NCBI GenBank assembly: GCA_964556755.1
Contig: CAZKXI010000002.1
Location: 88,263 to 152,262 of the forward strand
Source: an uncultured Eubacteriales bacterium
GTDB lineage: Bacteria; Acidobacteriota; Aminicenantia; Aminicenantales; UBA4085
Length of the DNA stretch: 64,000 nucleotides
Direction: 5' to 3'
The position numbers and the translations under genes are program-made. The notes under the pieces are model-generated. The model was not told the origin of the DNA. It saw nothing but the letters and a program-made list of their open reading frames with translations, and made no database searches. This document shows, in pieces, positions 20,660 to 38,420 of the stretch. Positions within the stretch are counted from its first letter, which is position 1, and every line of letters begins with the position of its first letter.

Positions 20660-20711
20660 GATCTTGCTCCTGTGCTTGGTGTCTGACTGTCATCCGATTC
20701 CGGGCAACGGC

Positions 20712-21170: not shown

Positions 21171-21195
21171 CTGATCGCTCCGCTGCCGTTGCGCT

Positions 21196-21755: not shown

Positions 21756-21765
21756 GGCCGACCAG

Positions 21766-22164: not shown

Positions 22165-22180
22165 GATAAACCTCCAATGT

Positions 22181-24086: not shown

Positions 24087-24451
24087 CGGGGCTGTCCCTC
24101 GCCACGGCCCCCATCGTCGACGTCCCAGGAGGGCCGGGAAGGGCCTAGGCGCCGCTTCCAGAAGGATTCCCGGCGGGAGGTCAAGGATTCGGCATCCAGG
24201 GCCTCTCTGCGCTCGTCAAAGTAAGGCTTTGCAGCCTCCAGCGCCGCCAGGAGCTCGGGGAGCATGCGAAGCTTCACGGTCACGCCGCGGCCCGTAGGCG
24301 CAACCTCGTCTCTCCCTTCCTCCGGGCAGGGCAGCTTGTAGACGCGGACGTCCAGGTAATCGACCCCGTTGTGCACGACGCCGGCGATCTGCACCTCCTC
24401 GTAGCGGTTCTTTCGGAGTACGGCCAGGATTTCGCGGCTGTCGGGCCTCAT
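24083..24451 (-). CDS. hypothetical phage protein
   Basis: Start MRPDSREIL at 24451 overlapping the upstream gene's stop (ATGA); no family recognised. Confidence 0.35.
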   Translation of the reverse strand: MRPDSREILAVLRKNRYEEVQIAGVVHNGVDYLDVRVYKLPCPEEGRDEVAPTGRGVTVKLRMLPELLAALEAAKPYFDERREALDAESLTSRRESFWKRRLGPSRPSWDVDDGGRGEGQPR

Positions 24452-24966
24452 GACTGGACTCCTTCGGGGGCCGGCTGCGGGGCCCGCTTCTCTTCCTTCT
24501 TGGCGTCGATGTAGCGGCCCAGGTCCAGGCACTCGGCGGACTTGCGCTTGTCGATCCCCAGAGCCTGCAGCTCCAGGCGGAGGGAATTCGTATAGGCCAG
24601 ATAGAAGTCTCGGAGCGCCGGATCCAGCTCGCCGCCCTTGAAGATGCCTGTCTCCCTGGCATGCTCCTCGATCACGCGTAGAACCCCGAGCTTGGTCACG
24701 GCCCGGTCGATCAGGATCCGCTGGGCAGTCGTCAGATCCTGCTCGAGCGGGCCCAGGTCTCGGACCAGGCCGCAGCGGGCCTCGGCCAGGTAGGCCCGGA
24801 GCCATCGCCGACGCTCGGGGAGCTCGCCCCTGGTGAGGTAGGAATACCCGCCATGTACCGGAGGGCGCCCAATCCTTCCCTTGACCTTCAATTTTTGATC
24901 CGTTTTCGCGGTCAGCTGGTCGTTTTTCATCATGTTGATTTCATTAAAGATATGATTTTGGGCCAT
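24448..24966 (-). CDS. putative terminase small subunit / DNA-binding packaging protein
   Basis: ~160 aa basic protein upstream of terL with a putative HTH near the N-terminus; AT-rich start region, start uncertain (24930-24966). Confidence 0.35.
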   Translation of the reverse strand: MAQNHIFNEINMMKNDQLTAKTDQKLKVKGRIGRPPVHGGYSYLTRGELPERRRWLRAYLAEARCGLVRDLGPLEQDLTTAQRILIDRAVTKLGVLRVIEEHARETGIFKGGELDPALRDFYLAYTNSLRLELQALGIDKRKSAECLDLGRYIDAKKEEKRAPQPAPEGVQS

Positions 24967-25104
24967 TGGAAAACCGCCCCAAAAGTCGACAAATGCCCAG
25001 TTTTACAGGGGAAAACGGTGGTTTTATAGACCGTTGGTTTAGGGCAATTCCGGGGCATTCCAGGGGGTCCAGGAGGGGTACTCGGCCGAGAATTTCGTCT
25101 CAGA

Positions 25105-25319
25105 ACCTGTTCCCGCCCACTCCGTTTTTTTCGACCCTCGGGAACAGGTTTTTGCCCTATACCAGTCTCCGACCTGTTCCCATGTCGGGAACAGATCCAA
25201 CAGGGGGAAAGCGTCGATCTGTCCGACCTGTCCGGACCTGTTCCCATACCTCCGGAACAGATGGTCAACCTGACTTGTTCCATTGTTCCCCCCCCTAGGG
25301 GGGAACATGGGAACAGGTC
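25105..25319. repeat. iteron array: >=9 copies of GGAACAG(G/A)T or ACCTGTTCCC, several as inverted pairs, plus the near-palindrome GTTCCCCCCCCTAGGGGGGAAC
   Basis: Seen directly at 25105, 25140, 25172, 25188, 25236, 25254, 25274-25290, 25301, 25310; sits immediately downstream of the replication ATPase gene and upstream of terS. Confidence 0.7.
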
Positions 25320-25332
25320 GACTTGGGCCAGA

Positions 25333-26706
25333 TCAATCATGGATTGCCTCATAGAGCCTGCGGCGGCCTTCCAGGCGTGACCGCCAGCTGGCGCCCTCCC
25401 CGCGAAGGAGTAGCGCCAGCGCCTTCCCTCGCCGGCCGATCTCGAGCTCCTCCTTGATCCACTCGATGAGGGCGGATTGCGTGAGCGGTCCTGGGGCTTG
25501 TCTGAGATGGTCTGCAATCGCGTCGATCCGGTCCTGGTCGGGGCTTGCGGCCAGCGTGAACAGCCCTTCCGGCGTCCGCTGCAGGAACGTCTGGGCCGGG
25601 GCGAAGCGGGACTTCTCCCCCGTCCCCAGCCGATAGAGCGCGTCGGGATCCGGTTCGCCGTCGTCCTCGATCTTCTGAAACGTCGAACGCTTGACGGGGT
25701 ACAGGCTCAGGGCGCAGTCGGCCAGGTCGACGATGGTGCTTGATCCCTTGCTTACGCGCTCGTTCGATTTCGGCGTGTGATGCGCCGCCTGAACGGTGAA
25801 GCCGCAGCTGGTCAGCTCGCGGAGGCGCCCCATGACCAGGCTCATGATCTCGTCGTCATTCTGCGTCCCGCTGTGGGAGCTTCTGAGGGTATCGAAAACG
25901 AGAAGGCTCCCAGCGGGGAGGCGCTTGTAGACGTCCCATCGGTCGGAGTCGAGCTTGGGAGGCGGCGTCGAGAAAGAGTAATGCCACAGGCTGATATCGT
26001 TGGCTCCGATCAGGCGGATCCTGTCGGCAACCCATGCGATCGGATTCTCATAGTCGATGATGACGACGGGGCGGCGCTTCGTCGGCAGGGAGAATATTGG
26101 ATTGCCGGAGGCGACGGCCTGGCCCGATTGCATGAAGAAGGTCGACTTGCCGGTGCCGCCTCGGGAGATCACAACCGTGACGGCCTTGTCGACCACGAGC
26201 TGATCGACGACGTACTCGATCGAGACGTCCAGGGCGGCAACCTCGCTTCCCGACATCAGGAAACGCGCCGGGTCGACCTCAGCCGGGCCCTTCGCAAGCT
26301 CCTCAATCTCTCGGTCGAGGATGCCGAGCAGCGCCTGGGCTTCGGTGTCCCAGGTTCCCGTTGCCTTGTAGTTGCGGATCTCGCGCTCGAGCAGCTTGGC
26401 TCGTTCCGAGTACTTCCGCTCGAGGCGCAGGGCTTGCACCTTAGCCTCGAATCCCGCCGGCGGCAGGAGATAGCAGCCGGAGAGCTCTTTGAATAGGGCC
26501 TCGAGGGAGCTGCCGCATTTGGCCGAGAGAAGGCCGTCCTCTACGGGCTTGGTCGGATCGTCCTCGCTGAGCTCAAGGATGGCCTCGGCAATCTTCCGCC
26601 GCGGCCCGGTGAAGAGGCCGACCGCGTAGCCTTCTGCGCGCTGCCGCTCGGGCTGCTCCTTGGCCGTGAAGAGAAGCTCACGTTCTAGAGTAATAGGGGA
26701 ATTCAT
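25333..26706 (-). CDS. RecA-fold AAA ATPase, replicative helicase/primase-associated (RepA/DnaB-like) protein
   Basis: Walker A VVISRGGTGKSTF, Walker B-like LLVFDTL; start MNSPITLE at 26706. Confidence 0.55.
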   Translation of the reverse strand: MNSPITLERELLFTAKEQPERQRAEGYAVGLFTGPRRKIAEAILELSEDDPTKPVEDGLLSAKCGSSLEALFKELSGCYLLPPAGFEAKVQALRLERKYSERAKLLEREIRNYKATGTWDTEAQALLGILDREIEELAKGPAEVDPARFLMSGSEVAALDVSIEYVVDQLVVDKAVTVVISRGGTGKSTFFMQSGQAVASGNPIFSLPTKRRPVVIIDYENPIAWVADRIRLIGANDISLWHYSFSTPPPKLDSDRWDVYKRLPAGSLLVFDTLRSSHSGTQNDDEIMSLVMGRLRELTSCGFTVQAAHHTPKSNERVSKGSSTIVDLADCALSLYPVKRSTFQKIEDDGEPDPDALYRLGTGEKSRFAPAQTFLQRTPEGLFTLAASPDQDRIDAIADHLRQAPGPLTQSALIEWIKEELEIGRRGKALALLLRGEGASWRSRLEGRRRLYEAIHD

Positions 26707-26786
26707 GCGCCGCTCCCGCCGTCCGGGAGCAGCCAATCACTCGTCTTTGTTGCCATGCTGACCTACCGGGAAAAAGATGTATGCGA

Positions 26787-26990
26787 CTACCTCGGTTTCC
26801 TCTTCGTGGGGATGGAGCTTTTCTCGAGCTCGCGCTCTACGGCGGCCCAATCGACTCTGAGGCCGAAATGGGGCGGCCGCGAATGCGGGAGCTGGCCGGC
26901 CGAGATCAAGTTGTAAATGCGCTTGACCGAAAGCCCCAAGCGCTCGGCCGCCTCGGCGGGACGCAGCCAGCGGCGGACTATTTCAGACAT
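26787..26990 (-). CDS. excisionase/MerR-like helix-turn-helix DNA-binding protein
   Basis: MSEIVRRWLRPAEAAERLGLSVKRIYNLISAGQLP: HTH; ATG overlaps the upstream gene's stop. Confidence 0.5.
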   Translation of the reverse strand: MSEIVRRWLRPAEAAERLGLSVKRIYNLISAGQLPHSRPPHFGLRVDWAAVERELEKSSIPTKRKPR

Positions 26991-27240
26991 GGGCCGTCTC
27001 CTCGTGTTTGGAGTCGCCGGGCTCGATGGCCGGAAGAGGGCCTGGAAAGAGAAACCCCTCGGAGACGCCGAGGACGGCCGCGAGCCTAGAGGCCTGAGCA
27101 GCAGTCGGCAGCTCCCAGCCCCGCGAGATTCTGCTGAGGCGTGACGGGTGAAGCCCCGCGAGCGCCGCAAGCTGAATCTGGGGTAGGCCGCGGAAACGCA
27201 AAAGCTCTGCGATTCGGTTGGTTGGGGCTTCGTTCCTCAT
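26983..27240 (-). CDS. XRE/Cro-CI family HTH transcriptional regulator
   Basis: IAELLRFRGLPQIQLAALAGLHPSRLSRISRG: canonical XRE HTH; palindromic operator-like sequence just upstream (27305-27333). Confidence 0.6.
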   Translation of the reverse strand: MRNEAPTNRIAELLRFRGLPQIQLAALAGLHPSRLSRISRGWELPTAAQASRLAAVLGVSEGFLFPGPLPAIEPGDSKHEETAHV

Positions 27241-27304
27241 ACCCCAAATATAGACCGACAGAAGGAACTAATCAATGCTCATCTTATTTATTTACAACTA
27301 TTTA

Positions 27305-27333
27305 GACACTTTTTCTCGACGAGATAAAGTGTC
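27305..27333. promoter_or_regulatory. operator-like inverted repeat GACACTTT-N13-AAAGTGTC upstream of the Cro/XRE-like gene
   Basis: 8-bp perfect arms at 27305-27312 and 27326-27333 in an AT-rich intergenic region; a TTGACA (minus strand, 27330-27335) overlaps the right arm. Confidence 0.4.
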
Positions 27334-27355
27334 AATAAGACCGGAGGGCGAGGTT

Positions 27356-28096
27356 TTATATGCAGCCAGCAAGCGAGATTAAGTCGGCGATTGTCTCTAC
27401 ACCCTTCCTGATATGCGTCATAGAACACGGGCCCAAGCCACCCCATCGGCGCCAGTTTTGAGCTATGTATTGATAGCTTGGGCGAGTCGGCGTTTCCCTG
27501 AGATCGTACCAGCAGAGGTTTCTAAAGAAAGCGGGCTTGGTCCGTTCCTCTTTCTCGACCGCGTAGACTCGACCGATTTCGGATTTGATCCCCCCCCACA
27601 TGCCCTCCCATTCTCGCTGATTGGTCCAAGGGCTGATCCGAACATAAATGAACGCCTCTTCACGCCCGACGAACTCCTGCCAACAGTCGCCGCGACGATC
27701 CACCATCGACGCGGCATCCGGGCTCTGCATGACCTCGGCCAGGCTTCTCGGTCGCCCCGGACGTTTCGGCGCTGGATGGATAATATACTGACGAAGCTCG
27801 GGCCCTTCGGGGCCTTGGGGCCGGAGAGGACGACGGCAGATGATCTCGCTCCGGTAGACGAATCGCTCGATCGTCGCCAGGTCTCCGCTCCATTGCAGAT
27901 TGATCCTCCACCTCGAGCAGAAGTCGCCCCACTCATCAGAATATGAAAGTCCCCGGCTCTCCCCGCAGTGATCGAGCTGGCGGATGAATTCTTTGTTTCG
28001 TCGAAGCAGCTCGGCTCGCGCCAGGATCGGATCGAATGGGCGTTTGCTCTCCTCGATCTTGCGATTACGGAGATCAGGATCGATCTGAATAGCCAT
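27356..28096 (-). CDS. hypothetical cargo protein (no recognisable domain), in low-GC segment next to attR
   Basis: 246-aa ORF, Trp/Arg-rich, in distinctly AT-richer DNA between the repressor genes and the att site. Confidence 0.4.
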   Translation of the reverse strand: MAIQIDPDLRNRKIEESKRPFDPILARAELLRRNKEFIRQLDHCGESRGLSYSDEWGDFCSRWRINLQWSGDLATIERFVYRSEIICRRPLRPQGPEGPELRQYIIHPAPKRPGRPRSLAEVMQSPDAASMVDRRGDCWQEFVGREEAFIYVRISPWTNQREWEGMWGGIKSEIGRVYAVEKEERTKPAFFRNLCWYDLRETPTRPSYQYIAQNWRRWGGLGPCSMTHIRKGVETIADLISLAGCI

Positions 28097-28383
28097 GTCC
28101 GCCTCCCTGTGGCAGATCCCCGATTAAATAGAACCGGGCCAAGCGGTCAGGGATGATCCGCCGTTCGGGAGCGACCCTAGGCCCGGCTGATGTCATGGAT
28201 AGGTTCCTTCCTCAAACATAGGGTCCGCAACGGAGCAACGCAAGCGTCAATTTTGAGTGTCGACTTTTATGACGTGTTTTTTCGGTTTGGGCGGGATTTG
28301 GCGGGAATTGGCGGGAATGAGCCCCAAGGGCAAGGCTACGCGTAATGCGTTGATTTCTCAAGGTTTTAAGGGGTAAAAGGCAA

Positions 28384-28426
28384 GCGCGCCTGGGGTGACT
28401 CGAACACCCGACCAACGGTTTAGGAA
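28384..28426. repeat. attR: 43-bp direct repeat within tRNA-Arg 3' half
   Basis: Identical to 14897-14939. Confidence 0.85.
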
Positions 28427-28458
28427 ACCGCTGCTCTATCCGACTGAGCTACAGGCGC
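28385..28458 (-). tRNA. tRNA-Arg (anticodon CCT)
   Basis: Minus-strand cloverleaf: acceptor GCGCCTG/CAGGCGC, D-arm GCTCAGTCGGATAGAGC, anticodon loop TTCCTAA, T-arm GGGTGTTCGAGTCACCC; 74 nt without CCA. Confidence 0.85.
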
Positions 28459-28503: not shown

Positions 28504-30165
28504 TCAATCCTCCGGCGGCGGCGCCGTCTCCTCGTCGGCCCCCGTCTCGCGGCCGCCGCGGATGCCGATGAAGCGCTTGAGGTAATCCAGGATGCGGCGC
28601 TTGCTGGTCCCGGCCTGCACGTCCTTCTCCGAGAGGTCCTTGATCTTCAGAAGGCTCTCGCGGTTCTGCTCGTTGCGGGCGCTGACCAGCTCGGCGATGA
28701 CTTCGGCCAGATCGGGATTCTTGGCCAGGACCGGGCCGAAGTCCTCGGCCCGGATCTTCAGCAGGACGGCCTCCTCCTCGATGACGCCGGTCGCGGTCCT
28801 CGGCATCCCGGTAAAGAGCGACATCTCGCCGAACAAGCCGCCCGGGCCGACGCTGAACGAGGACGTATAGGACCGGCCCTCGTCCTGGGTCACGATCTCG
28901 CCGCGGATCCGGCCGCGGACGATGACATAGGCGCTGCGCCCCTTGTCGCCCTGGCGGAAGAGGACCTCGCCCCTGGCGTAGACGGCCGGGGTGACGACCG
29001 CGGCCAGATCCCGGACGTCGTCCTCGGGCACCAGGAGCTCCCCCGGGCCCCCGGCCTTGGGGCGGCGCAGGAAGGCCGACTTCATGAGCGCCGCATAGCT
29101 CTCCTCGGCCGCCTCCCCCGCCGGCCCGGCCGCCCCGGTCGGGACGGCTCGACCCGTCCCGGCCGCGATCCCGACCATGGCCTTCAAGCCCTCGGCCGCC
29201 GGCACGGCGATCTCGAAGCCCTTGCGGCGAAGCTTGTACCAGGCCAGCCGGCCGACGTCGGTGATGATGCTGTGCTTGCGGGCGTAGTCCGTGACCCAGA
29301 ACTTCAGAAGGTAGGAGACACCCATCTCATCGAAGCTCTGCAGGTAGGCCAGCGGAGCCGGATCGCACACGACCGCCGGGCAGTCCCGGGCGGCTTCGAC
29401 CAAGACGGCCAGCACCTCTCCCGCCGGAGCCTGGGGGCTCAGCTTAAAGGGCAGGAAGAGGGCCGTCCGGCCGTCCGGCTGGGCGTAGTTGATGATTCTC
29501 TCCGAGGCCACGATCGTGTTGGGCAGAACGATGATGTTCGAGGCTCGGTCCAAGATGCGCGTCTCCCGCCAGTTCGTGTCGACGACGATACCCTCGTGCG
29601 CTCCGATCTGGACCCAATCGCCGCGGCTGATGGAGCGGACGAAGTGCAGCGAGGCCCCCGAGAGGATGTTGCCCAGCACGCCCTGCAGGGCCAGGCCCAG
29701 GACCATGGTCAGGATGGCCGAGGCGCCCAGGATCGGCGAAAGATCGATCTTCAGGATGGCCTTGAGGACGATGAAGAGGACGGCCAGCTCCATGATCCCC
29801 AGCACCAGGTTGCGCAGGACGCCCGGCATGGGAAAGGACTTGTGCGACCGGCCATACCAGATCGAGAGCAGGGCGTCGAACAGGCGGATGAGAAGGAAGA
29901 AGACGAAGAAGACCACGCCCGCGTCGACATAGGGCTGGAACGCCGCCGGCACCGGGAGGAAGGCGGACATTCCGGCGAAAGCCAGGCCGAAGACGGCCGG
30001 AAAGCTCAGGCGGGCCATCAGGATCCGCCCGGTCCGGCCCATTCCGGCGGCGAAGCGGCCGGCCAGGAAGCGCGTGATCAGATACAGCAGGAGAGCCCCG
30101 GCGACGATCAGGAGATAGACCGACAGGGTCCCGTAGATCGAGCGCGGCGCCGAGGCGTCCATCAC
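28504..30165 (-). CDS. mechanosensitive channel MscS family protein with C-terminal cyclic-nucleotide-binding domain
   Basis: MscS TM3/beta-domain region (LGLALQGVLGNILSGASLHFVRSISRGDWV), then cNMP-binding motif FGEMSLF..PRTATGV. Confidence 0.8.
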   Translation of the reverse strand: MMDASAPRSIYGTLSVYLLIVAGALLLYLITRFLAGRFAAGMGRTGRILMARLSFPAVFGLAFAGMSAFLPVPAAFQPYVDAGVVFFVFFLLIRLFDALLSIWYGRSHKSFPMPGVLRNLVLGIMELAVLFIVLKAILKIDLSPILGASAILTMVLGLALQGVLGNILSGASLHFVRSISRGDWVQIGAHEGIVVDTNWRETRILDRASNIIVLPNTIVASERIINYAQPDGRTALFLPFKLSPQAPAGEVLAVLVEAARDCPAVVCDPAPLAYLQSFDEMGVSYLLKFWVTDYARKHSIITDVGRLAWYKLRRKGFEIAVPAAEGLKAMVGIAAGTGRAVPTGAAGPAGEAAEESYAALMKSAFLRRPKAGGPGELLVPEDDVRDLAAVVTPAVYARGEVLFRQGDKGRSAYVIVRGRIRGEIVTQDEGRSYTSSFSVGPGGLFGEMSLFTGMPRTATGVIEEEAVLLKIRAEDFGPVLAKNPDLAEVIAELVSARNEQNRESLLKIKDLSEKDVQAGTSKRRILDYLKRFIGIRGGRETGADEETAPPPED

Positions 30166-30980
30166 AGCTTGACCGTCATCCCGGCCGCGGCGACCTCAAC
30201 GTGGCGGAAGTTCGCCTTGGCCGCCCGCTTCATGCCGCCGATCGTCCGGTCGTCGTAGTTGGGATTCAGATGAGACAGCAGGAGCCGGCCGACCTTGGCC
30301 GCCTTGGCGATCCGCACGCCCTGCTCCCAGGTGCTGTGGCCCCAGCCCTTGCGGCCGGACTCGTACTCCTCCGGCGTGTACATGGCGTCATAGACCAGCA
30401 GCGAGGCCTTCTGGGCCAGCTCGGCCAGCCGGCTGTCGATCCCCTCCTCGGGATGCTCGGTGTCGGTGGCGAAGACCGCGCTGCGCTTCCCGTCGTCGAA
30501 GCGGTAGGCCATGCAGCCCTGGGGATGGCGGAGCTGGGTCCTCTGGACGCGCAAGCCGGCGATCGTGGCGCCCTCGGGGCCGATGCGTTGGAAGACCTTC
30601 TTGGAGGGCGTCTCGTCGAAGCCGACCGGGAAGAGGGGGGCCTTCATCAGCCGGGCCAGGACCTCGTGAGCCTCCTCCGGATCGATCCAGGATATGAAGG
30701 TGATCTCCGTGTCCGGCCGGTAGAGGACGTCGAAGAAGGGCAGGCCCAGGACATGGTCCAGGTGGAAGTGGGTGAAGAGAAGGGTCGCCTTCAGCGGCCC
30801 GCGGCCGGCCGCCGCCATCATCCGGGCCCCCAGCGTGCGCAGGCCGGTCCCCGCGTCCAGGATGACATCCTCCCCCGTCGTCGACTTGATCAGGGCGCAG
30901 GGCGTCGCGGCCCCGTATTGGGATTCGCACCGGCCGGCGGCCGGGAACGACCCTCGCACGCCGTAGAATTCGATCCGCAT
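30162..30980 (-). CDS. MBL-fold metallo-hydrolase (possible class II cyclic-nucleotide phosphodiesterase)
   Basis: Only the C-terminal 272 aa of ORF 30162..32990 look real (THFHLDHVLGLP beta-lactamase-fold His motif); AAAGGA RBS before ATG 30980; the rest of the ORF is an alternate frame of the cyclase gene. Confidence 0.65.
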   Translation of the reverse strand: MRIEFYGVRGSFPAAGRCESQYGAATPCALIKSTTGEDVILDAGTGLRTLGARMMAAAGRGPLKATLLFTHFHLDHVLGLPFFDVLYRPDTEITFISWIDPEEAHEVLARLMKAPLFPVGFDETPSKKVFQRIGPEGATIAGLRVQRTQLRHPQGCMAYRFDDGKRSAVFATDTEHPEEGIDSRLAELAQKASLLVYDAMYTPEEYESGRKGWGHSTWEQGVRIAKAAKVGRLLLSHLNPNYDDRTIGGMKRAAKANFRHVEVAAAGMTVKL

Positions 30981-30994
30981 GATGGCTATCCTTT

Positions 30995-33070
30995 CTATTT
31001 GGTCTTGAGGTCGAAGACGAGGTCCCAGTCCGCCGGGGGCGGGGCGGCCAGGAACTGGGCGCAGCGCGCCGCGTAGACGGCCGCGACGGGATCGCCGGCC
31101 AGGGCCGCCGCCCCGGCCGCCGCCTCGGCCCAGGACCGGCGGCGATAGGCGTCCAGGACGCCCCGGAAGGCGTCCAGGCGGGCCGGGACGTCCGCCCCGA
31201 TCCCCTCCCGCAGGCCGACGACTTCGAAGATCCGGGTCGGACGGCTCTTGCCGACGACCCGCAAAAGATCGATCTCCCGGGACAGGACGGCCGGGCCGGC
31301 CGCGGCGATCGTCCCTTCGCCGGCCAGAATGGAGATGCCGAAGGGCTTGCAGGCGCCCTCCAGCCGGGCCGCCAAGTTCACCGTGTCGCCCATGGCGGTG
31401 TAGTCGAAGCGGCGGCTGCTGCCCATGTTGCCCACCACGGCCGGCCCGGTGTTGAGGCCGATGCGCATCCGGAGCTTGTGGCCGAAGCGGGCCTCCAGCC
31501 CGGGGCCCATGGCGGCCAGCTTGGCCTGGCAGGCCAAGGCCGCCCGGCAGGCCCGCAAGGCATGGTCGGGCGTGTCGAGCGGGGCGTTCCAGAAGGCCAC
31601 GATGGCGTCGCCCTCGTACTTGTCCAGCGTCCCGGCCTCGTCCAGGATGATGTCCGACATCGCGGACAGCAGCTCGTTGAGCAGGGCCACCAGCCCCTCG
31701 GCCCCCAGCGATTCGGAGATCGTCGTGAATCCGGCCACGTCCGAGAAGAACGAGGTGATCTCGCGCCGCTCTCCGCCCAGCCGCAGCAGGGCCGGGTTCT
31801 CGGTCACCCGCTCGACGACGTGGGGGCTGAGGTACTGCCGGAAAGCCGACTTCAGGAAGCGTCGCTGGCGCCCCTCCGAGGCATAGCTCCAGACGGCCGC
31901 CGCGATCACCGCAAAGAGGACGCCGGCGGTGGGAAGGACCAGTCCGACCCATCGGCCGGCCCAGAATCCCAGACCGGCCGCGGCCGCGGGCAGGACCAGG
32001 AAGCCGGCCGAGGCCGCTCCCAGGGCGGCGGGCTTGCCGATCCGCGAGACCGCCGTGGCCGCGCCGATCGCCAGCAGCAGCGCGAGGAGGAGGTCGAGCC
32101 AGAGCGAGGGGGGGCGCAGGAAGCGCCCGCGGAGGAGCGTGTCGAGCGCCGCGGCCTGGATCTCGACGCCGGGAACGGCCCGGCTGATCGGCGACGTCTT
32201 CATGTCCAACAGGCCGACGCCGCTGAGCCCGATCAGGACGTTCTTGCCGGCGAAGGTCCGCAAGGGAAGGGTCGGCTCTTCCCCCTCGGACATCTTCAGC
32301 CAGCCGTCGATGACCGTGGCCGCCGGGTAGGCCGGAAAAGCCCGGCCCGCGCGGTAGCGGATCAGCATGGCCCCGTCGTCGTCCAGCGGCGGAGCCTTCG
32401 CCTCGGTCCCGGGCGTCGGCGCCAGGCGGGACAGGGACAGGGCGACTGAGGGGATCGTCCGGCCGCCGATCGAAGAAGCCAGGGGCATCCGGCGGTAGAT
32501 CCCGTCGGCGTCGGGATCCACGTGGACCTCGGCTCCGCCGCGGGCCGCCTCGGCCAGGATTGGGAGGGGTGTGGTGGCCGAGCGGAAGGTCCGGCTCGCC
32601 GGCGGCGCGGCATCGCCCTTGAGGTCCGATCTTGCGAGAAAGGCCTCCGCCCCCTCGGAAGAGGGACCGTCCTCGCGGCTGAGGAAGATCGGCAGGATGA
32701 CATGGCCCGACTCGCTCAGGGCCGCGGCCAGCGCCTCGTCGTCCTCCACGGCATAGGGGGAGGCCTCGCTCATCATGATGTCGATGAAGACCGAGCGGGC
32801 GCCGGCGTCCTTCAGGAAGCCCAGGATCGGCGCATACATCTCGCGCGGCCACGGCCAGGAGACCTGCTGGGCCTTGAAATGATCCAGGCTGTACTGGTCG
32901 ACGAGGATGAGGGCGATGTCGGGAGCGGGATCGCGGTCGGCGAAGAGGCGGAGGCGGGCGTCCCAGCTCTTCAGCTCCAGGCCCCGCCATAGGCCCAAGG
33001 CCCCCAGGGCGGCGGCCATCAGGAAGGCCCCGGCGCCGGCCAGGACGCCGCGGCGAAGCTTCTTGTCCAC
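30995..33070 (-). CDS. CHASE2 sensor domain-containing class III adenylate/guanylate cyclase
   Basis: Periplasmic CHASE2-like region between two TM segments, then CHD cyclase (ITSFFSDVAGFT, DKYEGDAIVAFW, RIGLNTGPAVVGNMG, GDTVNLAARLE); start uncertain (GTG 33070 chosen; ORF extends to 33208). Confidence 0.75.
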   Translation of the reverse strand: MDKKLRRGVLAGAGAFLMAAALGALGLWRGLELKSWDARLRLFADRDPAPDIALILVDQYSLDHFKAQQVSWPWPREMYAPILGFLKDAGARSVFIDIMMSEASPYAVEDDEALAAALSESGHVILPIFLSREDGPSSEGAEAFLARSDLKGDAAPPASRTFRSATTPLPILAEAARGGAEVHVDPDADGIYRRMPLASSIGGRTIPSVALSLSRLAPTPGTEAKAPPLDDDGAMLIRYRAGRAFPAYPAATVIDGWLKMSEGEEPTLPLRTFAGKNVLIGLSGVGLLDMKTSPISRAVPGVEIQAAALDTLLRGRFLRPPSLWLDLLLALLLAIGAATAVSRIGKPAALGAASAGFLVLPAAAAGLGFWAGRWVGLVLPTAGVLFAVIAAAVWSYASEGRQRRFLKSAFRQYLSPHVVERVTENPALLRLGGERREITSFFSDVAGFTTISESLGAEGLVALLNELLSAMSDIILDEAGTLDKYEGDAIVAFWNAPLDTPDHALRACRAALACQAKLAAMGPGLEARFGHKLRMRIGLNTGPAVVGNMGSSRRFDYTAMGDTVNLAARLEGACKPFGISILAGEGTIAAAGPAVLSREIDLLRVVGKSRPTRIFEVVGLREGIGADVPARLDAFRGVLDAYRRRSWAEAAAGAAALAGDPVAAVYAARCAQFLAAPPPADWDLVFDLKTK

Positions 33071-33072
33071 TC

Positions 33073-33981
33073 CTATTTCAGCCCCGCCGTGGCCGCCTTG
33101 AAGCGGATCGTCCGGACGGCTTGCAGGACGGGCAGCGGGCCCAGGCCGGCCACGGTCTTCTCGGACCGTCCGATCCTCTGCTCCGGCGTCGGGTGGGTCT
33201 TGAACCATCCCGAGCCGGAGGAGGCCGCCGCGCCGCCGGTCATGGCCTTCAGGAAGCGGAGGAGTCCGTTCGGATCGAAGCCGGCCCGCCGGCTGGTCCC
33301 GAGGGCCAGCTCGTCGGCCTCGTACTCGTACTTGCGGTCGTAGCCTTTCTCGACCAGGCTCTCGGCGATGTCGCCGAGGGCTTCCTCGAACAGCCCGGTC
33401 AGCTTGTCCAGCTCGGCCGGGGCGTATCTCTGCAGGGTGCCCTGCTCCATGATCTTGAAGGCGTCCACCAGGCGGGACTTCTTGATCGACTGCAGGCCGT
33501 GCCGGGCGGAGACGTGGCCGATCTCGTGGGCCAATATGGCGGCCAGCGCGTCCTCGTCGGAGCAGAGCCTGATCAGCCCCTTGGTCAGGAAGATCATCCC
33601 GCCGGGGGCGGCCAAGGCGTTGACCTCGTCGGAGTCCAGGACCTGGAAGTGGTAGCCGGCATAGGTCTCCGGCCTTTCCGAAGACAGAGCCACCGCCTGG
33701 CCCAGCGTGTTGATGTACTGGCTCAGGGCGGGATTGTTCAGCGGCGCATAGCGCGACAGGATCAGGGCGGCCACGCTTCGACCTATGTAATACTCTTCCT
33801 CCTCGCTGATGTCGCCGAAGGTGCTGCGGACCGTCTTGACCGTCTTCTCGACCTTCTCGACCGCGTCCTTGGCGCCCTTGACCTTGTTGAGGATGCCGCC
33901 GATCCCTTGAGCGGAGGCCGATCCGACCGCCAGGACGAGCAGGAGGGCCAGGACCAGCGGCAACCGGCGCCGGGCGCTCAT
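33073..33981 (-). CDS. M48 family zinc metallopeptidase (secreted)
   Basis: Signal peptide, HEIGH zinc motif (LAHEIGHVSARH) with downstream Glu. Confidence 0.75.
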   Translation of the reverse strand: MSARRRLPLVLALLLVLAVGSASAQGIGGILNKVKGAKDAVEKVEKTVKTVRSTFGDISEEEEYYIGRSVAALILSRYAPLNNPALSQYINTLGQAVALSSERPETYAGYHFQVLDSDEVNALAAPGGMIFLTKGLIRLCSDEDALAAILAHEIGHVSARHGLQSIKKSRLVDAFKIMEQGTLQRYAPAELDKLTGLFEEALGDIAESLVEKGYDRKYEYEADELALGTSRRAGFDPNGLLRFLKAMTGGAAASSGSGWFKTHPTPEQRIGRSEKTVAGLGPLPVLQAVRTIRFKAATAGLK

Positions 33982-34463
33982 CGGGCGCCTCCGAAGGGCG
34001 GCAGCAGGCCGCGTTTGAGGAAGTCTTGCAGCTGGGCCGGGGACACTTTGACCTGGAGCAGCCGATCGACGGCGGCGAAGGCGAGCGACGGGTTCTTGGC
34101 CTTGTAGCTGTCCTCGACCTGCTTGTTGAAGCCCTTGCCGGCCAAAGCCACTTCGGAGGCCGAGGCCTGGGTCTTCATGGCCGAGCCGGAGGAGGCCAGG
34201 GCCAGGCGGGGCGCCGCCACGGCGCCGGCGTGGATCCAGCCCGAGGCGCCGGCGGCCGACTTGACCTGGAGCCAGCCGTTGGCCTCGGCCAGCTGGACCA
34301 GCTTGTCGCCGGCCTTGACCGCGGCCACTACCGGGGCGAAGAACTGCGGCGCCTGGCGGATGGCCGAGCTCTGGACCTTGACCACGACGGTGTCGGCCGC
34401 CGAGGCCAGCAGGACCAGGACGAGCAGCCCGACGAGGGCGGCCCGGGTGCGGATGTTCCTCAT
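33978..34463 (-). CDS. secreted SH3b-domain protein
   Basis: Signal peptide; GWLQVK..GWIHAGAV bacterial SH3-like motif; stop overlaps M48 start (ATGA). Confidence 0.45.
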   Translation of the reverse strand: MRNIRTRAALVGLLVLVLLASAADTVVVKVQSSAIRQAPQFFAPVVAAVKAGDKLVQLAEANGWLQVKSAAGASGWIHAGAVAAPRLALASSGSAMKTQASASEVALAGKGFNKQVEDSYKAKNPSLAFAAVDRLLQVKVSPAQLQDFLKRGLLPPFGGAR

Positions 34464-34505
34464 GGGCTCCTCCTTGTCCGTCCTGGACCCATGATAGGGG
34501 TTCGA

Positions 34506-36707
34506 TCAGGCCAAGTCAAACCCGGACGGCCGGGCGGCCGCCTCGAGGAGCTTCTCCTTCAGACGGCTGTTGCGGTGGACCGGCTTGTCGTTCTTGATGG
34601 CGATGTAGAGGGCCTTGTAGGAGCCGATGATCACGCTCAGCTTCTTGGCCCGGGTCAGGGCGGTGTAGAAGAGATTCCGCTGGAGCATGATGAAGTGCTG
34701 GGTCAGCAGGGGCATGACCACGGCCTGGTACTCGGAGCCCTGGGACTTGTGGACGGAGACGGCGTAGGCCAGGGCGATGTCGTCCAGCTCGTCCCGCTCG
34801 TAGACGACCGGCCGCCCCTCGAAGCCGACGACGACCCGGAAGGAGGCCTTGTCGACGTGGAGGATGTGGCCGATATCGCCGTTGAAGACGTCCTTGTCGT
34901 AGTCGTTGCGGACCTGCATGACCTTGTCCCGGACGCGCAGCTCGCGGGCGCCCAGGCGCAGCCCCTCGCTGCGCCCGTTCAGCCGGCGCTGCATCTCGAT
35001 GTTCAGCCTCTCGATGCCGACGAAGCCCTTGTACATGGGGCTGATGACCTGGATCTGGTGCGACAGGGGCGGCAGGCCGAAACGCTGGGGGATGCTCCAT
35101 CCGACCAGCTTCATGATGGTCGAGAAGACCTTGGCCTCCTCCTCCTGGCGGATGAAGTAGAAGTCGGCGTTCTTCTCGCCGCGGGGGGGGTAGATCAGCT
35201 TCTCGCCCTGGTTGATCCGGTGGGCGTTCTGGACGATCAGGCTGTCGGCCTCCTGGCGGAAGATGCGGTCGAGGCGGACGACCGTCTCCGGACGGGCCTC
35301 GATCAGATCGCGCAGGAGCTGGCCGGGGCCGAGAGCCGGGAGCTGGTCCTTGTCCCCCACCAGGATCAAGCGCATGGACGGCGGCACGGCCTTGATCAGG
35401 GAGTGCATCAGGGCCAGGTCGACCATGGAGAACTCGTCGATGATGACCGCCTCGCCGGCCAACGGGTGGCGGGCGTCGCGGCGGAAGGAGCCGAGCTTGG
35501 GATTGAACTCCAGCAGCCGGTGGAGGGTCTTGGCCTCCAGGCCGGTGCTCTCGGACAGGCGCTTGGCGGCCCGGCCCGTCGGCGCCCCCAGGAGGACCGT
35601 CTTGCCCCACTTGGCGAAGACGGCCGTGACCGCCTTGATCAGGGTGGTCTTGCCGGTGCCCGGGCCGCCGGTGACGACCACGATCTTCTTGCCGACGCTG
35701 TCGGCGATGGCCTTCCTCTGCAGGGGCGAGAACTCCACCCGGAGCTCCCGCTCGACTTCGGCTACGACCTTGTCGATCTCGAGGGAAGGAGCCTGGAAGG
35801 GGGCCCGCGAGAGCCGCTCCAAGGCTTGGACGACCTCCTCCTGGGCGTCATAGTAGAAGGGCCGATAGACCGCCGTGTCGCCCTCCACGGCCTCGCAGAC
35901 CACGGCCCGCCTCCCGGCCAGGGCCTCCAAGGCCGCCTCGACCGCCGGCCGGCCGACCCCAAGCTCCTGGCAGGCCGCGGCCAGAAGGGCCCCGCGCAGG
36001 GAGAAGACGTGGCCCTGCTCGTTGTCCTTCTCCAGGAGATACAGAAGGTAGGCCTTGATGCGCTCGGGCGAGGCCGGGTCGGTGCCCAGCTTGAGGGCGA
36101 TCGCGTCGGCCGTCTTGAAGCCGATGCCCCAGATGTCCAGGCAGAGCTGATAGGGGTTGGACTTGAGGATCTCGTAAGAGCGCGGCCCATATTGGCGGTA
36201 GATCTTGTTGGCCAGGCTGGTCGAGACGTCGTGCTCCTGGAGGAAGATGATCAGGTCGCGGACGTCGCGGTGCGAGGCCCAGGAGGCCTTGATGTCGACC
36301 AGCTTGGAGGCCCCGATGCCGCTGATCTCGGTCATCCGCTCGGGCTGCCGCTCCAGGATATCCAGGGTCCGGTCGCCGAAAGCGGCCACGATCCTGCCGG
36401 CCAGGGCCGGGCCGATGCCCTTGATCAGCCCGCAGGAGAGATACTTCTCGATGCCTTTCAGGCCCACGGGCAGGACCGGCTGAAAGCGGGCTACCTTGAG
36501 CTGGGGTCCGTACTTGGCGTTGGCCTCCCACTCCCCTTCGACCTTGAGCCGCTCGCCGGGTGCCAGGGGGGGGAAGGCGCCGACGATGACCATCTTGTCC
36601 CGGCCGTCGGCGGCGAAGCGGAGGACCGAGTAGCCGTTGTCGGGATTGAAGAAGAGGACGGATTCGATCGTCCCTTCGAAGGCTTCCATGTCGGCCCATT
36701 TTAGCAT
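34506..36707 (-). CDS. recD2: ATP-dependent RecD-like DNA helicase (RecD2)
   Basis: N-terminal HhH/OB region, SF1 helicase motifs VVTGGPGTGKTT, DEFSMVD, C-terminal UvrD-like domain (AVSVHKSQGSE). Confidence 0.85.
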   Translation of the reverse strand: MLKWADMEAFEGTIESVLFFNPDNGYSVLRFAADGRDKMVIVGAFPPLAPGERLKVEGEWEANAKYGPQLKVARFQPVLPVGLKGIEKYLSCGLIKGIGPALAGRIVAAFGDRTLDILERQPERMTEISGIGASKLVDIKASWASHRDVRDLIIFLQEHDVSTSLANKIYRQYGPRSYEILKSNPYQLCLDIWGIGFKTADAIALKLGTDPASPERIKAYLLYLLEKDNEQGHVFSLRGALLAAACQELGVGRPAVEAALEALAGRRAVVCEAVEGDTAVYRPFYYDAQEEVVQALERLSRAPFQAPSLEIDKVVAEVERELRVEFSPLQRKAIADSVGKKIVVVTGGPGTGKTTLIKAVTAVFAKWGKTVLLGAPTGRAAKRLSESTGLEAKTLHRLLEFNPKLGSFRRDARHPLAGEAVIIDEFSMVDLALMHSLIKAVPPSMRLILVGDKDQLPALGPGQLLRDLIEARPETVVRLDRIFRQEADSLIVQNAHRINQGEKLIYPPRGEKNADFYFIRQEEEAKVFSTIMKLVGWSIPQRFGLPPLSHQIQVISPMYKGFVGIERLNIEMQRRLNGRSEGLRLGARELRVRDKVMQVRNDYDKDVFNGDIGHILHVDKASFRVVVGFEGRPVVYERDELDDIALAYAVSVHKSQGSEYQAVVMPLLTQHFIMLQRNLFYTALTRAKKLSVIIGSYKALYIAIKNDKPVHRNSRLKEKLLEAAARPSGFDLA

Positions 36708-36749: not shown

Positions 36750-38420
36750 ATGTCCCTCCTGCGGACCCTGACCAACGCCCTTCTGGCGGCCCTGCTCTTC
36801 GCCATGCTCCTGGCCCTCCTGGTCGTCGACCTCAACGTCAACCTGACCGTGACCCCGCGCGTCCTCCTGGTCCTGAGCGGCTGGATGGCCGTCACCTACG
36901 GCGTCCTGGCCGCCCTGCTCGTCGTCCTGCTCGCCTCGGCCTTCCGCTTCCTGACCGGCGGCCGGCCGGTCGAGGGCTTCCTCAGCCCGTCCTTCCTGAT
37001 GCTGGCCACGGCCTTGGAGACGCTGGCCGCCCTGGTCATCATCCGCGAGAACACCGCCTACTTCGCGTCCTTCTTCTCGGCCGACGCCCGGGCCCATCTG
37101 AACGTCCAGATGATCGCCCTCTTCGCGGTGGCCGTGATCGGCCTGCTGGCCCATTACGGGTACCGCCAACGCCGGCCGCGCCGGGCGGTCTGGATCGCCT
37201 ACTTCGCCCTGCTGGCCGGAGTGGTCGGCCTGGCCGTCTACGAGAGGCTGAGCCTCGAGCCCCCGCCCCGGGAGCGCCGGACGGGACTCTACCGTCCGAC
37301 CGAGACGGACCGCCGGGTGACGCTGATCGGCATTGACGGATTGAGCCTGGACTTCATCCAGCCCCTGGCCGCGGAGGGCCTGCTGCCGAACTTCTCCGCC
37401 CTGATGGAAGGCGGCGCTTGGGGCCGCGTCGCCGGATTCACCCCCAGCGATCCCTTCGTCCTGCGGCGCAGCCTTCTGACGGGCCGGATGCCCGCCCACC
37501 ATCGCCAGATCTCGGACGTCCGCTACTCCCTTCCCGGCCTCCCCCACCGGCTCGAAGTGGTGCCCCGGTTCATCCTCTTCCGCCAGATGACCCGTCTCCG
37601 CATCCTGTCGATGGAGTCCCATCCCCTCCCGGCCCGGATCAAGGACCTGGTGCGGATCGCCGTCGACTCCGGCCTTCCCGTCCTGGACGCTTCCGCGGCG
37701 ATCCCGGCTCCCCCCGCCGAGGCGCCCGCCGGGGCCGAGGCCGCCCCGGAGTCCTTCTTCCAGGTCATCTTCCAGGACTTCGAGTCCGAGACGTCGCGTC
37801 TCTTCGAGCCGGTCCGCCGGGCCCTGCGGGCCGACGACGAGTCGTTTGGCCGGACCTTCCGGATCAAGGCGGCCGGCCAGCCCCGCTTGACCGTCCTCTT
37901 CCTGGACGGGCTGAGCCCCGTCCAGAGCCTCTTCTACAAGTACAGCCAGCCGGAGGCCTTCGGCGAGATCCGCCAGGAGGACATCCTCCGCTACGGCCCG
38001 GTCATCCGCAAGGCCTACCAGCTCTATGACCGCATCCTGGGCCGGGCCATGGCCGCGCTCAAGGAGGGCGAGCTCCTGGCCGTCGTCTCGACCCACGGCG
38101 TGGAGCCGCTGCCCTTCTGGAAGCGCATGGTCGAGTGGGCCCTGGGCAATCCCGACGTCTCCGCCTACCACGAGCGGGCGCCGGACGGGGCGGCTTTCTT
38201 CTTCGGGGGCGGAGTGGCCAAAGGCGTCCCGCTCGACGCGGTCGAGCTCGTCGACGTCCTGCCGACGATGCTGTACTACCTGCGGCTGCCGGTGGGGCGG
38301 GACATGGACGGCATCGTACGGGTGAAGGTCTTCGACCGCGCCTTCACCGAGGCCAATCCGGTCTTCACCATTCCCTCGTACGACGATCTGGAGATCCGGC
38401 CGGCCCGGATCAATGAATGA
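36750..38420 (+). CDS. membrane protein with alkaline-phosphatase-superfamily (type I phosphodiesterase/nucleotide pyrophosphatase-like) domain
   Basis: ~6 N-terminal TM helices, then VTLIGIDGLSLDF motif resembling the metal-binding start of AlkP-fold enzymes. Confidence 0.45.
   Translation: MSLLRTLTNALLAALLFAMLLALLVVDLNVNLTVTPRVLLVLSGWMAVTYGVLAALLVVLLASAFRFLTGGRPVEGFLSPSFLMLATALETLAALVIIRENTAYFASFFSADARAHLNVQMIALFAVAVIGLLAHYGYRQRRPRRAVWIAYFALLAGVVGLAVYERLSLEPPPRERRTGLYRPTETDRRVTLIGIDGLSLDFIQPLAAEGLLPNFSALMEGGAWGRVAGFTPSDPFVLRRSLLTGRMPAHHRQISDVRYSLPGLPHRLEVVPRFILFRQMTRLRILSMESHPLPARIKDLVRIAVDSGLPVLDASAAIPAPPAEAPAGAEAAPESFFQVIFQDFESETSRLFEPVRRALRADDESFGRTFRIKAAGQPRLTVLFLDGLSPVQSLFYKYSQPEAFGEIRQEDILRYGPVIRKAYQLYDRILGRAMAALKEGELLAVVSTHGVEPLPFWKRMVEWALGNPDVSAYHERAPDGAAFFFGGGVAKGVPLDAVELVDVLPTMLYYLRLPVGRDMDGIVRVKVFDRAFTEANPVFTIPSYDDLEIRPARINE

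Follow-up and report, generated by a model that had tools for sequence, protein, structure and literature searches.

The locus at positions 28504–34463 of the window (the whole stretch of DNA analysed, 64,000 nucleotides) raises the question of whether a CHASE2 cyclase, an MBL-fold hydrolase and a channel with a cNMP-binding domain, which are encoded side by side with two secreted proteins, constitute a single signalling circuit. It is reasonably likely, though well short of certain, that the locus is one operon for a complete and self-contained circuit, which leads from a periplasmic signal through cAMP to a channel and has its own eraser. According to this proposal, the CHASE2 domain of the receptor cyclase would sense a periplasmic cue that is probably bound, generated or removed by the SH3 protein and the M48 metallopeptidase. 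In the cytoplasm, the class IIIb domain would produce cAMP, which would bind to the C-terminal cNMP-binding domains of the MscS-like (bCNG) channel and change its gating, so that ions or solutes would cross the membrane. The MBL-fold enzyme, encoded between the cyclase and the channel, would hydrolyse cAMP and reset the system. The novelty of this circuit is a new combination of known parts. Its role in envelope-stress or osmotic signalling, which was proposed in the first-pass annotation, is speculative.

Arrangement of the five genes

The region 28504–34463 is filled exactly by five consecutive ORFs, all of which are located on the same strand, as previously described, which is the minus strand. 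These genes encode, in the 5'-3' order, the SH3 protein (33978–34463), M48 peptidase (33073–33981), CHASE2 cyclase (30995–33070), MBL hydrolase (30162–30980) and MscS/cNMP protein (28504–30165). The domains that had been called for these five proteins are all identified when the Pfam gathering scores are used as the threshold for assignment: SH3_3; Peptidase_M48; CHASE2 and Guanylate_cyc; Lactamase_B_2; and MS_channel_2nd/3rd and cNMP_binding, respectively. The junctions are different from those described, because ATGA overlaps had been claimed for three of the four junctions, but only the SH3/M48 junction has one. The MBL/MscS junction is GTGA, or alternatively TGATG when the next ATG is the start codon. 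The M48 and cyclase genes are separated by a 2-nt spacer (TAG-GA-GTG), and the cyclase and MBL genes by a 14-nt spacer that contains AAAGGA. With these overlaps and with no spacer longer than 14 nt, the five genes are tightly packed and probably co-translated.

The ATG of the SH3 gene is preceded by a ribosome-binding site, AAGGAGG. A promoter-like site (TTGACT-17 nt-TATCAT; 34491–34519, minus strand), which is a consensus match only (10 of 12 positions), overlaps the recD2 stop codon, and the SH3 start codon follows ~28 nt downstream. Two sigma-70-like sites are detected in the 8.8 kb scanned, as compared with 0.4 expected from shuffles, and terminator-like sites are no more frequent in the scanned region than chance predicts (4 observed versus 4.0). 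An integrated phage-like element adjoins the locus; it is a tRNA-Arg insertion distinct from the locus and has att repeats of its own.

Cyclase, channel and secreted proteins

The receptor adenylate cyclase (691 aa, minus strand, GTG start; PF05226, E 6e-47; PF00211, E 3e-17) contains TM1 (aa 9–27), a periplasmic CHASE2 domain (aa ~17–334, nt 32069–33022), three more TM helices (aa 323–393) and a class IIIb cyclase domain (aa 436–580, nt 31331–31765). When the cyclase domain is aligned to those of the experimentally studied CyaB (3R5G) and CyaC (1WC0), Lys484 and Thr558 form an adenylate signature of class IIIb, and the residues for the metal and the transition state are intact as well. The position of the specificity lysine is occupied by Glu in Cya2 and by Lys in its E-to-K variant. 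D444, D488, K484, T558, N565 and R569 are invariant in an alignment of 19 orthologues. Thus, the assignment of this protein as the writer, a CHASE2 class III cyclase, holds, and the residues by which its substrate was to be judged are of the adenylate type. Because this signature and the catalytic residues are invariant in the 19 orthologues, the messenger is predicted to be cAMP rather than cGMP. The CHASE2 sensor is likewise fused to a class III cyclase in CyaD1, CyaD2 and CyaK of Sinorhizobium meliloti, in which the cyaD1 locus also groups the PDE SpdA and the Crp-like receptor Clr. However, the output of the S. meliloti systems is a transcription factor, whereas that of the present system would be an ion channel; the S. 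meliloti PDE belongs to another fold than the MBL protein; and the accessory proteins of the present system are an SH3 protein and an M48 protease, both of them secreted.

The bCNG-type channel (553 aa, 28504–30165, minus strand; PF00924, PF21082 and PF00027, E 2e-18) contains ~five TM helices, a pore-lining helix among them (aa 145–163), which are followed by the MscS beta-domain (aa 163–228, nt 29482–29679), the MscS C-terminal domain, a linker and the cNMP-binding domain (aa 395–483, nt 28717–28983; cassette FGEMSLFTGMPRTAT). The cassette is canonical (FGE...RTA) with intact ligand-binding residues, and this domain matches those of Epac, PKA-R and SthK. These results agree with the earlier assignment of the effector as an MscS channel with a cNMP-binding domain, and both the gating of the channel by cAMP and its direction are predictions. 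The channel is a member of the published bCNG (bacterial cyclic-nucleotide-gated) family of MscS-like channels (Caldwell et al. 2010; Malcolm et al. 2012; both cited in PMC13591265). According to a 2026 review (PMC13591265), overexpression of bCNG channels left E. coli unprotected against hypoosmotic shock, the physiological roles of these channels are not understood, and no structures reveal the role of cyclic nucleotides in their gating. Unlike these channels, the present one, from Acidobacteriota/Aminicenantia, is encoded at the end of a conserved operon that also supplies a cyclase and a putative PDE, and this operon suggests a testable job for the bCNG family. In the literature, no paper was found that links CHASE2 with mechanosensitive channels.

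The SH3-domain protein (161 aa, minus strand; PF08239, E 3e-8) is predicted to be secreted from its signal peptide, an N-terminal hydrophobic segment. Its SH3_3 domain spans aa 35–82, and its C-terminal half (KTQASASEVALAGKGFNKQVE...) is highly conserved in the alignment of 19 orthologues. The M48 zinc metallopeptidase (302 aa, minus strand; PF01435, E 8e-30) also has a signal peptide, together with the HEIGH (aa 152–156) and EYEAD (aa 219–223) motifs. It shares a secreted M48 domain and HExxH with the periplasmic M48 proteases BepA and LoiP, its best NCBIfam matches, but scores far below their cut-offs (97 versus 570 bits and 53 versus 365 bits, respectively), has neither a TPR domain nor a lipobox, and is translationally coupled to the SH3 protein within a cyclase operon. 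The SH3/M48 pair with the 4-nt overlap is kept in all three relatives that were compared by their called genes. In Terriglobia, a different secreted protease (caspase C14 and TPR) occupies the same position of the operon. It is plausible that the SH3 protein and M48 peptidase are the signal-input module that links the circuit to its presumed physiological trigger.

Conservation of the gene order and linkage to cyclases

The full five-gene order is present in ~19 of 80 species-level genomes and in several metagenome contigs, in which the MBL protein is 75, 56, 50, 49 and 48% identical to that of the window. The order is thus strongly conserved, and the combination that was held to speak against the circuit, a non-PDE match of the MBL protein together with unconserved synteny, is not what is found. 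The chromosomal neighbours, recD2, a PF01663 protein and signal peptidase, are the same in three relatives (L001, L002 and L007), whereas the five-gene cluster persists with different flanks in L005, one of the metagenome contigs, and in L006. Most of the full clusters are from one class, Aminicenantia, or from MAGs with the same flanking genes, and part of the synteny therefore reflects shared ancestry. In Terriglobia, Bryobacteraceae and an alphaproteobacterium, members of the cluster are combined anew, with changed order and orientation.

The link of the MBL family with cyclases and signalling domains is strong and recurrent. In 43 of 80 species loci, the MBL gene has a class III cyclase ORF no more than 5 kb away, and the density of cyclase ORFs (44 in 682 kb near MBL genes, 1 in 421 kb of the outer flank) corresponds to a 27-fold local enrichment. 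The gene arrangements in which this linkage is seen number at least four: cyclase > MBL > channel; CHASE2 cyclase > secreted caspase-TPR > MBL; MBL convergent with a large cyclase; and MBL > cyclase. In Bryobacteraceae and a further Acidobacteriota MAG (L027, L029, L066 and L071), the MscS-cNMP gene is still close to the MBL gene and is oriented differently. Some members of the MBL family carry fused PilZ, STAS, GAF-histidine kinase and PAS domains, and one (P0286) is fused to a receiver domain and a class III cyclase. Neither a cyclase nor another recognisable messenger gene is located near the MBL gene in ~19 of 80 loci.

MBL-fold protein and alternative explanations

The MBL protein (272 aa, 30162–30980, minus strand; PF12706, Lactamase_B_2) was proposed as a candidate eraser because its MBL fold (HFHLDH) is that of class II 3',5'-cNMP PDEs. 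This motif is present (nt 30753–30770), within THFHLDH (aa 70–76, nt 30753–30773), and is accompanied by H152, D173, GWGHSTW (aa 212–218) and H237 in a protein whose AF2 model has a pLDDT of 94. However, a search at E≤10 gives no match to PF02112, the model of class II PDEs, and the protein is therefore not a typical class II PDE. Its place in PF12706 is between RNase Z on one side and the "atypical class II" cAMP PDEs of the YhfI/Rv1339 type on the other. Rv1339, CpdA and YhfI, all of them such atypical PDEs, are assigned to PF12706 (PMC9293780), and YhfI, the top PDB match of the MBL protein in Foldseek, is a PDE that prefers cAMP/cGMP (PMC9117128). The MBL protein shares [T/S]HxHxDH and a size of ~250–275 aa with Rv1339 (M. 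tuberculosis), CpdA (C. glutamicum) and YhfI (B. subtilis), but is only ~20% identical to these PDEs, and its C-terminal half with GWGHSTW is nearer to RNase Z than to YhfI. In the family, an RNase Z-like HST motif takes the place of GH(M/L)N of YhfI. We know of no report that Rv1339 or CpdA is embedded in a cyclase operon or fused to a signalling domain.

These features allow an alternative in which the route from cAMP to the channel holds, but the MBL protein, instead of degrading 3',5'-cAMP, acts as an RNase Z/BN-like nuclease, as a phosphodiesterase (PhnP-like 2',3'-cyclic or other) or as a hydrolase of a different small molecule, and would sit in the operon for another reason, such as downstream output. 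This alternative is rather unlikely, but deserves serious consideration. The HxHxDH, HST-like and C-terminal motifs are common to RNase Z/RNase BN (ELAC family), homologues are annotated at JGI as 'RNase BN' or 'phosphoribosyl 1,2-cyclic phosphodiesterase', and RNase Z models score best in all 35 family members tested (E down to 7e-28), better than the curated cyclic-nucleotide PDE model NF041851 (1e-16; 52 bits versus a cut-off of 400 for the MBL protein). The PhnP model is also matched. However, the best match of the MBL protein, to RNase Z, is weak (78 bits versus a cut-off of 293), all RNase Z and PhnP scores being 3–4 fold below the curated cut-offs; the flexible arm of RNase Z, a tRNA-binding exosite of ~42–45 residues, is absent; and no phn genes are located nearby. 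Housekeeping RNA processing also leaves unexplained the cyclase enrichment, the multiple operon arrangements and the fusions to PilZ, STAS, GAF, kinase and REC-cyclase, which indicate a context of signalling rather than RNA processing. Thus, the proposal of an eraser stands on genomic context, the YhfI match and the fusions, while its original reason, a class II PDE fold, is imprecise. The MBL protein is probably a cAMP eraser, and remains a candidate whose putative PDE activity is supported by context only.

A Pycsar-like abortive infection system, in which phage would trigger the cyclase, the cyclic nucleotide so produced would open a membrane pore that kills the cell, and the MBL protein would serve as a safety brake, is extremely unlikely. 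Pycsar likewise encodes a cyclase together with a cNMP-binding TM or TIR effector, and Apyc1, by which phages counter it, is an MBL-fold cNMP PDE; the effector of the present locus differs in being an MscS channel. The PADLOC PycC model PDLC00734 matches the cyclase domain (99.6 bits) and PycTIR models match the cNMP-binding domain of the channel, but these matches are at the domain level only, and none is to the MBL, SH3 or M48 protein. Precomputed Pfam tables give PF23023 (Anti-Pycsar Apyc1 MBL PDE family) for several MBL homologues, but this is not reproduced in the Pfam profile search, and viral fold matches are weak. The adjoining phage-like element is a separate insertion, the locus, unlike mobile defence islands, keeps its chromosomal neighbours in three relatives, and the cyclase has an extracytoplasmic CHASE2 sensor and a purine (Lys/Thr) signature. 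It is very unlikely that the five genes are adjacent merely through shared ancestry in one class without functional coupling, as the predominance of Aminicenantia and of MAGs with the same flanks would suggest, because the cluster persists with different flanks, its members are reassembled in other lineages, its junctions are tight, and a direct MBL-REC-cyclase fusion exists.

Layout and surroundings of the operon

The five minus-strand genes occupy exactly positions 28504-34463, as the first-pass annotation had it, and each domain predicted in their products is above the Pfam gathering threshold. In the direction of transcription, they encode the SH3 protein (33978-34463, 161 aa), the M48 peptidase (33073-33981, 302 aa), the CHASE2 cyclase (30995-33070, 691 aa, GTG start), the MBL-fold protein (30162-30980, 272 aa) and the MscS/cNMP protein (28504-30165, 553 aa). 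Three of the four junctions had been read as ATGA overlaps, but only the SH3/M48 junction is ATGA. The MBL/MscS junction is GTGA, and the other two are spacers, of 2 nt between the M48 and cyclase genes (TAG-GA-GTG) and of 14 nt, containing AAAGGA, between the cyclase and MBL genes. The GTG at 33070 is chosen as the cyclase start rather than the ATG at 33208, because the called orthologues start 13-70 nt past the M48 stop codon and because the longer ORF (737 aa) would overlap the M48 gene by 136 nt. A promoter-like site (TTGACT-17-TATCAT, 34519-34491, minus strand) separates the 3' end of the recD2 helicase gene from the start of the SH3 gene, and terminator-like sites are not above chance in the scanned region around the operon. 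Long ORFs on the plus strand, such as that at 34026-36704 (892 aa), are rejected as antisense artefacts of high GC content, because their GC content peaks at codon position 1 rather than at position 3.

The upstream neighbours encode a RecD2-type helicase (34506-36707, minus strand), a membrane-anchored protein of the PF01663 phosphodiesterase/pyrophosphatase family (36750-38417, plus strand) and signal peptidase I (38413-39141, minus strand). They are also present in three Aminicenantes contigs with homologous loci (L001, L002 and L007), but absent in a fourth locus (L005), and are therefore placed outside the module. Downstream of the operon lies a tRNA-Arg(CCT) gene (28384-28458) with its own promoter-like site. 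Also directly downstream is a 13.5-kb integrated phage-like element (14897-28426), with a direct repeat of 43 nt, identical in both copies, at its two ends (14897-14939 and 28384-28426), representing the 3' part of tRNA-Arg(CCT). This element encodes a tyrosine integrase (14960-16105) and an AAA_25 protein (25336-26736), and its GC content at codon position 3 is below that of the flanks. Its 519-aa ORF at 22530-24086 has no match in Pfam.

Cyclase, channel and secreted proteins

CHASE2 is a common bacterial sensor domain. In the cyclase of this operon it spans residues 17-334 (PF05226, E 6e-47), N-terminal to the catalytic domain and between transmembrane helices. Hydropathy locates the transmembrane segments at residues 9-27 and 323-393, with a single helix at the N-terminus followed by the periplasmic CHASE2 domain, three more helices and the catalytic domain. 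The metal-binding aspartates (D444 and D488) and the transition-state residues (N565 and R569) are all present, and N565, R569 and the motif containing D488 (DKYxGD) are invariant in 19 of 19 orthologues, as are Lys484, which lies in this motif, and Thr558. When the cyclase is aligned to solved cyclases, Lys484 corresponds to the lysine of CyaB and CyaC, at a position occupied by Glu in Cya2 and by Lys in its E-to-K variant, and Thr558 corresponds to the threonine of CyaB and CyaC. Adenine specificity is associated with Lys and Thr or Asp, and GTP specificity with Glu and Cys or Gly. The first-pass annotation named cAMP/cGMP as the messenger; Lys484 and Thr558 form the adenylate pair, which is a class IIIb signature. 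Because of this signature, the messenger of this operon should be cAMP.

The channel shows homology to MscS (PF00924, E 1e-13; PF21082, E 4e-6), its residues 116-323 are covered by the MscK, MscM and MscS models together, and its hydrophobic helices include the pore-lining segment. Its cNMP-binding domain (PF00027, E 1.6e-18) contains the canonical cassette FGEMSLFTGMPRTAT, which aligns to those of Epac, PKA-R and SthK and is recovered by pattern in 17 of the 19 channel orthologues. The best matches in the PDB are Epac, a Crp-type regulator domain, PKA-R and SthK. As judged from its sequence, the architecture is that of a bCNG channel, with an MscS pore, beta- and C-terminal domains and a cNMP-binding domain. 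The bCNG channels were reportedly described in 2010. According to a 2026 review, they gave E. coli no protection against hypoosmotic shock upon overexpression, what they do physiologically is not understood, and structural data are lacking (PMC13591265).

Both the SH3 protein and the M48 peptidase have signal peptides that look cleavable, and neither has a lipobox cysteine. The M48 peptidase contains the motifs HEIGH and EYEAD. It is not a BepA-type periplasmic protease, because it scores 97 bits against a cut-off of 570 with the BepA model (NF052400), covers only positions 39-252 of the 483 profile positions and has no C-terminal TPR domain reported by Pfam; its score is also far below the NCBIfam cut-off for the periplasmic protease LoiP. 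A search for its homologues gives only close relatives from Aminicenantes, with identities of at least 54%. Across 19 orthologues, the SH3 protein is less conserved in its SH3 domain than in its C-terminal half (residues 100-161 approximately), for which Pfam reports no match. The stretches SEVALAGKGFNKQVE and KTQASASEVALAGKGFNKQVE of this half are almost invariant, and the region EVALAGKGFNKQVE is invariant. The conserved C-terminal stretch could serve as the place where the co-translated M48 protease binds or cuts. The two genes are called as a single fused ORF in two long-read-derived assemblies (L001, 4507-5895; L022, 5369-6814), where the fusion is either natural or the product of a 1-nt indel in the ATGA overlap.

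The MBL-fold protein

MBL-fold cAMP phosphodiesterases, namely Rv1339, CpdA and YhfI, have been recognised in bacteria recently. The first-pass annotation proposed a class II phosphodiesterase as the candidate eraser. By profile, the MBL protein does not belong to this class in the literal sense: PF02112, which represents the typical class II enzymes such as yeast PDE1 and CpdP, gives no match at E<=10, and the protein is assigned instead to PF12706 (E 5.5e-17). The metal motif HFHLDH is located at residues 71-76. With its preceding threonine, which is conserved at 90% or more, it fits [T/S]HxHxDH, but this pattern is not discriminating, because RNase Z sequences fit it as well. The longer, PROSITE-type form of the motif is not matched in full. 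Rv1339, CpdA and YhfI define the atypical class II phosphodiesterases within PF12706, carry [T/S]HxHxDH and are believed to have evolved from RNase Z (PMC9293780). YhfI, to which the MBL protein is approximately 20% identical, prefers cAMP and cGMP (PMC9117128).

The NCBIfam models give weak matches, far below their cut-offs, for all 35 family members tested. The MBL protein scores 78 bits against a cut-off of 293 with the RNase Z model (TIGR02651), 52 against 400 with the model for cyclic nucleotide-degrading phosphodiesterases (NF041851, a full-length match), 33 against 564 with the true_RNase_BN model and 30 against 272 with the PhnP model (TIGR03307). Alignments with B. subtilis and E. coli RNase Z skip approximately 42-45 residues between two matched blocks, and the residues skipped are those of the tRNA-binding flexible arm (exosite). 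In the window and the related loci, the neighbours inspected include no phn genes. Scores below the cut-offs, the missing arm and the missing PF02112 match lead us to reject a true RNase Z, a PhnP and a typical class II phosphodiesterase as its identity. The AF2 model shows a compact MBL core (pLDDT 94), for which Foldseek ranks B. subtilis YhfI first, followed by RNase Z, BA1088, ELAC1 and PhnP; a viral structure library yields weak MBL matches only. Precomputed tables list PF23023 (Anti-Pycsar Apyc1, a phage MBL-fold cNMP phosphodiesterase) for some homologues, a hint that is not reproduced with the local Pfam. The MBL protein sits in the RNase Z/PhnP/YhfI phosphodiesterase branch, within which homology and fold do not decide the substrate. 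Its role is indicated more informatively by the gene context.

Gene context, proposed circuit and alternatives

The five-gene synteny, which the first-pass annotation regarded as a check on its reading, is conserved. Contigs encoding MBL proteins 75, 56, 50, 49 and 48% identical to that of this operon all carry the SH3, M48, CHASE2 cyclase, MBL and MscS/cNMP genes, one of them with different flanks, and the nearest relatives are labelled Aminicenantes or Acidobacteriota. The context was surveyed in 80 species genomes by gene calling and with domain profiles built for this survey. The cyclase-MBL-channel core is found in about 19 of the 80 loci, all from Aminicenantia except one from another acidobacterial MAG. 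In about 11 loci from Terriglobia and Bryobacterales, a CHASE2 cyclase gene is tightly coupled to genes for a secreted FecR-like/caspase C14/TPR protein and an MBL protein. The MBL gene is convergent with that of a large cyclase in 9 loci, has an MscS/cNMP gene nearby in other orientations in 4, precedes a cyclase gene in 1 (an alphaproteobacterial MAG) and is fused to PilZ in about 13 (one confirmed by Pfam, the others inferred from ORF length), and about 19 loci have nothing recognisable nearby. In 43 of the 80 loci, a cyclase ORF lies no more than 5 kb from the MBL gene (44 hits in 682 kb, as compared with 1 hit in 421 kb of outer flanks), although these loci, while differing in arrangement, are not independent. 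At E<=1e-30, a library clustered at 50% identity contains 2,534 representatives of the family, and in long members the MBL part is joined to PilZ, STAS, GAF-histidine kinase or PAS domains.

The three-gene operon of Terriglobia and Bryobacterales (L035, L039, L041, L043, L047, L056, L058 and L062; about 4250-9820 in most) is a second case in which a secreted protease gene lies beside a CHASE2 cyclase gene. Its middle protein (930-950 aa) has a FecR-like N-terminus and TPR repeats, and a caspase C14 domain is detected in most of these proteins.

In the most likely circuit, a periplasmic cue would reach the CHASE2 domain, the cyclase would make cAMP, cAMP would bind to the cNMP-binding domains of the channel and alter its gating, and the MBL enzyme would hydrolyse it. 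Gene context and domain fusions point indirectly to 3',5'-cAMP hydrolysis by the MBL protein. It is a reasonable conjecture that the SH3 and M48 proteins bind or process the cue, because a secreted protease is encoded beside a CHASE2 cyclase in both operon types and because the one CHASE2 signal that our search found described, in S. meliloti, is itself a protein: plant uL2, which is sensed via NsrA (PMC13001267).

The scores of the MBL protein lean to RNase Z, as expected if its substrate is other than cAMP, but the fusion pattern fits a second-messenger enzyme and not an RNA-processing enzyme, and such a substrate is rather unlikely. A Pycsar-like antiphage defence system would consist of a dedicated pyrimidine cyclase and a cNMP-binding transmembrane or TIR effector in a defence context. 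PADLOC reports matches to PycC (99.6 bits) and PycTIR, but at the domain level only, and the cyclase has K/T residues of the purine type and carries a CHASE2 sensor, while the relatives keep the same chromosomal neighbours, so that a defence system of this kind is very unlikely. Inherited synteny as the mere reason why the five genes stand together is very unlikely as well, because alternative arrangements and a fusion protein exist.

The preferred reading is a cAMP circuit that is complete in itself and has a channel as its output. None of its parts is of a new kind (a bCNG channel, a CHASE2 class III cyclase, a phosphodiesterase-like MBL protein of PF12706 and an M48 peptidase), and nothing in the circuit is mechanistically unprecedented. 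Our literature search found no paper on this operon and none joining CHASE2 with mechanosensitive channels. Because a bCNG channel, a CHASE2 cyclase and an MBL-fold phosphodiesterase candidate share one conserved, predicted transcription unit, each provides hypotheses that can be tested on the others: the cyclase would supply the channel ligand, the MBL enzyme would remove it, and the secreted proteins encoded upstream would indicate the source of the signal. The operon makes the questions on bCNG and CHASE2 more testable, in host organisms that are mostly uncultured. The survey also supports the assignment of a large, uncharacterised MBL family to cyclic-nucleotide signalling, both in Acidobacteriota and outside them. 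The joint claim that this family represents unrecognised cAMP phosphodiesterases and that CHASE2 cyclases are paired with a dedicated secreted protease making or removing their ligand is put forward tentatively, as possible rather than probable. If it is true, the family (approximately 2,500 clusters at 50% identity) would be an eraser dedicated to class III cyclases, with and without CHASE2, and modular enough to occur in fusions with PilZ, STAS, GAF, kinase and cyclase domains. In Aminicenantia, the partner protease of CHASE2 would be M48 with the SH3 protein, and in Terriglobia it would be caspase C14-TPR; the receptor would be gated by proteolysis, and its output in this operon would be direct gating of an MscS-like channel by cAMP. 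The bCNG channels would then have their first physiological pathway, and there would be a lead to the CHASE2 signal.

Several loci show further associations. A 666-aa protein from a 3.9-kb ENA metagenome contig (P0286) combines a domain of this MBL family with a response-regulator receiver domain and a class III cyclase domain (PF00211, E 1e-50), but the sequence is the only one of its type and its contig is short, so that it may be an artefact of gene merging. The Aminicenantes chromosome CP070750 (L017) has a second cluster at 12891-17326, approximately 1.5 kb downstream of its five-gene operon, in which a cyclase gene stands between two genes for cNMP-binding proteins. The MBL ORF of Acidiferrales-type MAGs has a length of approximately 390-440 aa (about 9001-10150 in L045, L050, L057, L064, L069, L073, L074, L076 and others), and its extra C-terminal part is PilZ, a c-di-GMP-binding domain, in L057. 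Genes for CDF cation-efflux transporters (PF01545) are common, representing 11 of the 111 immediate neighbours surveyed.
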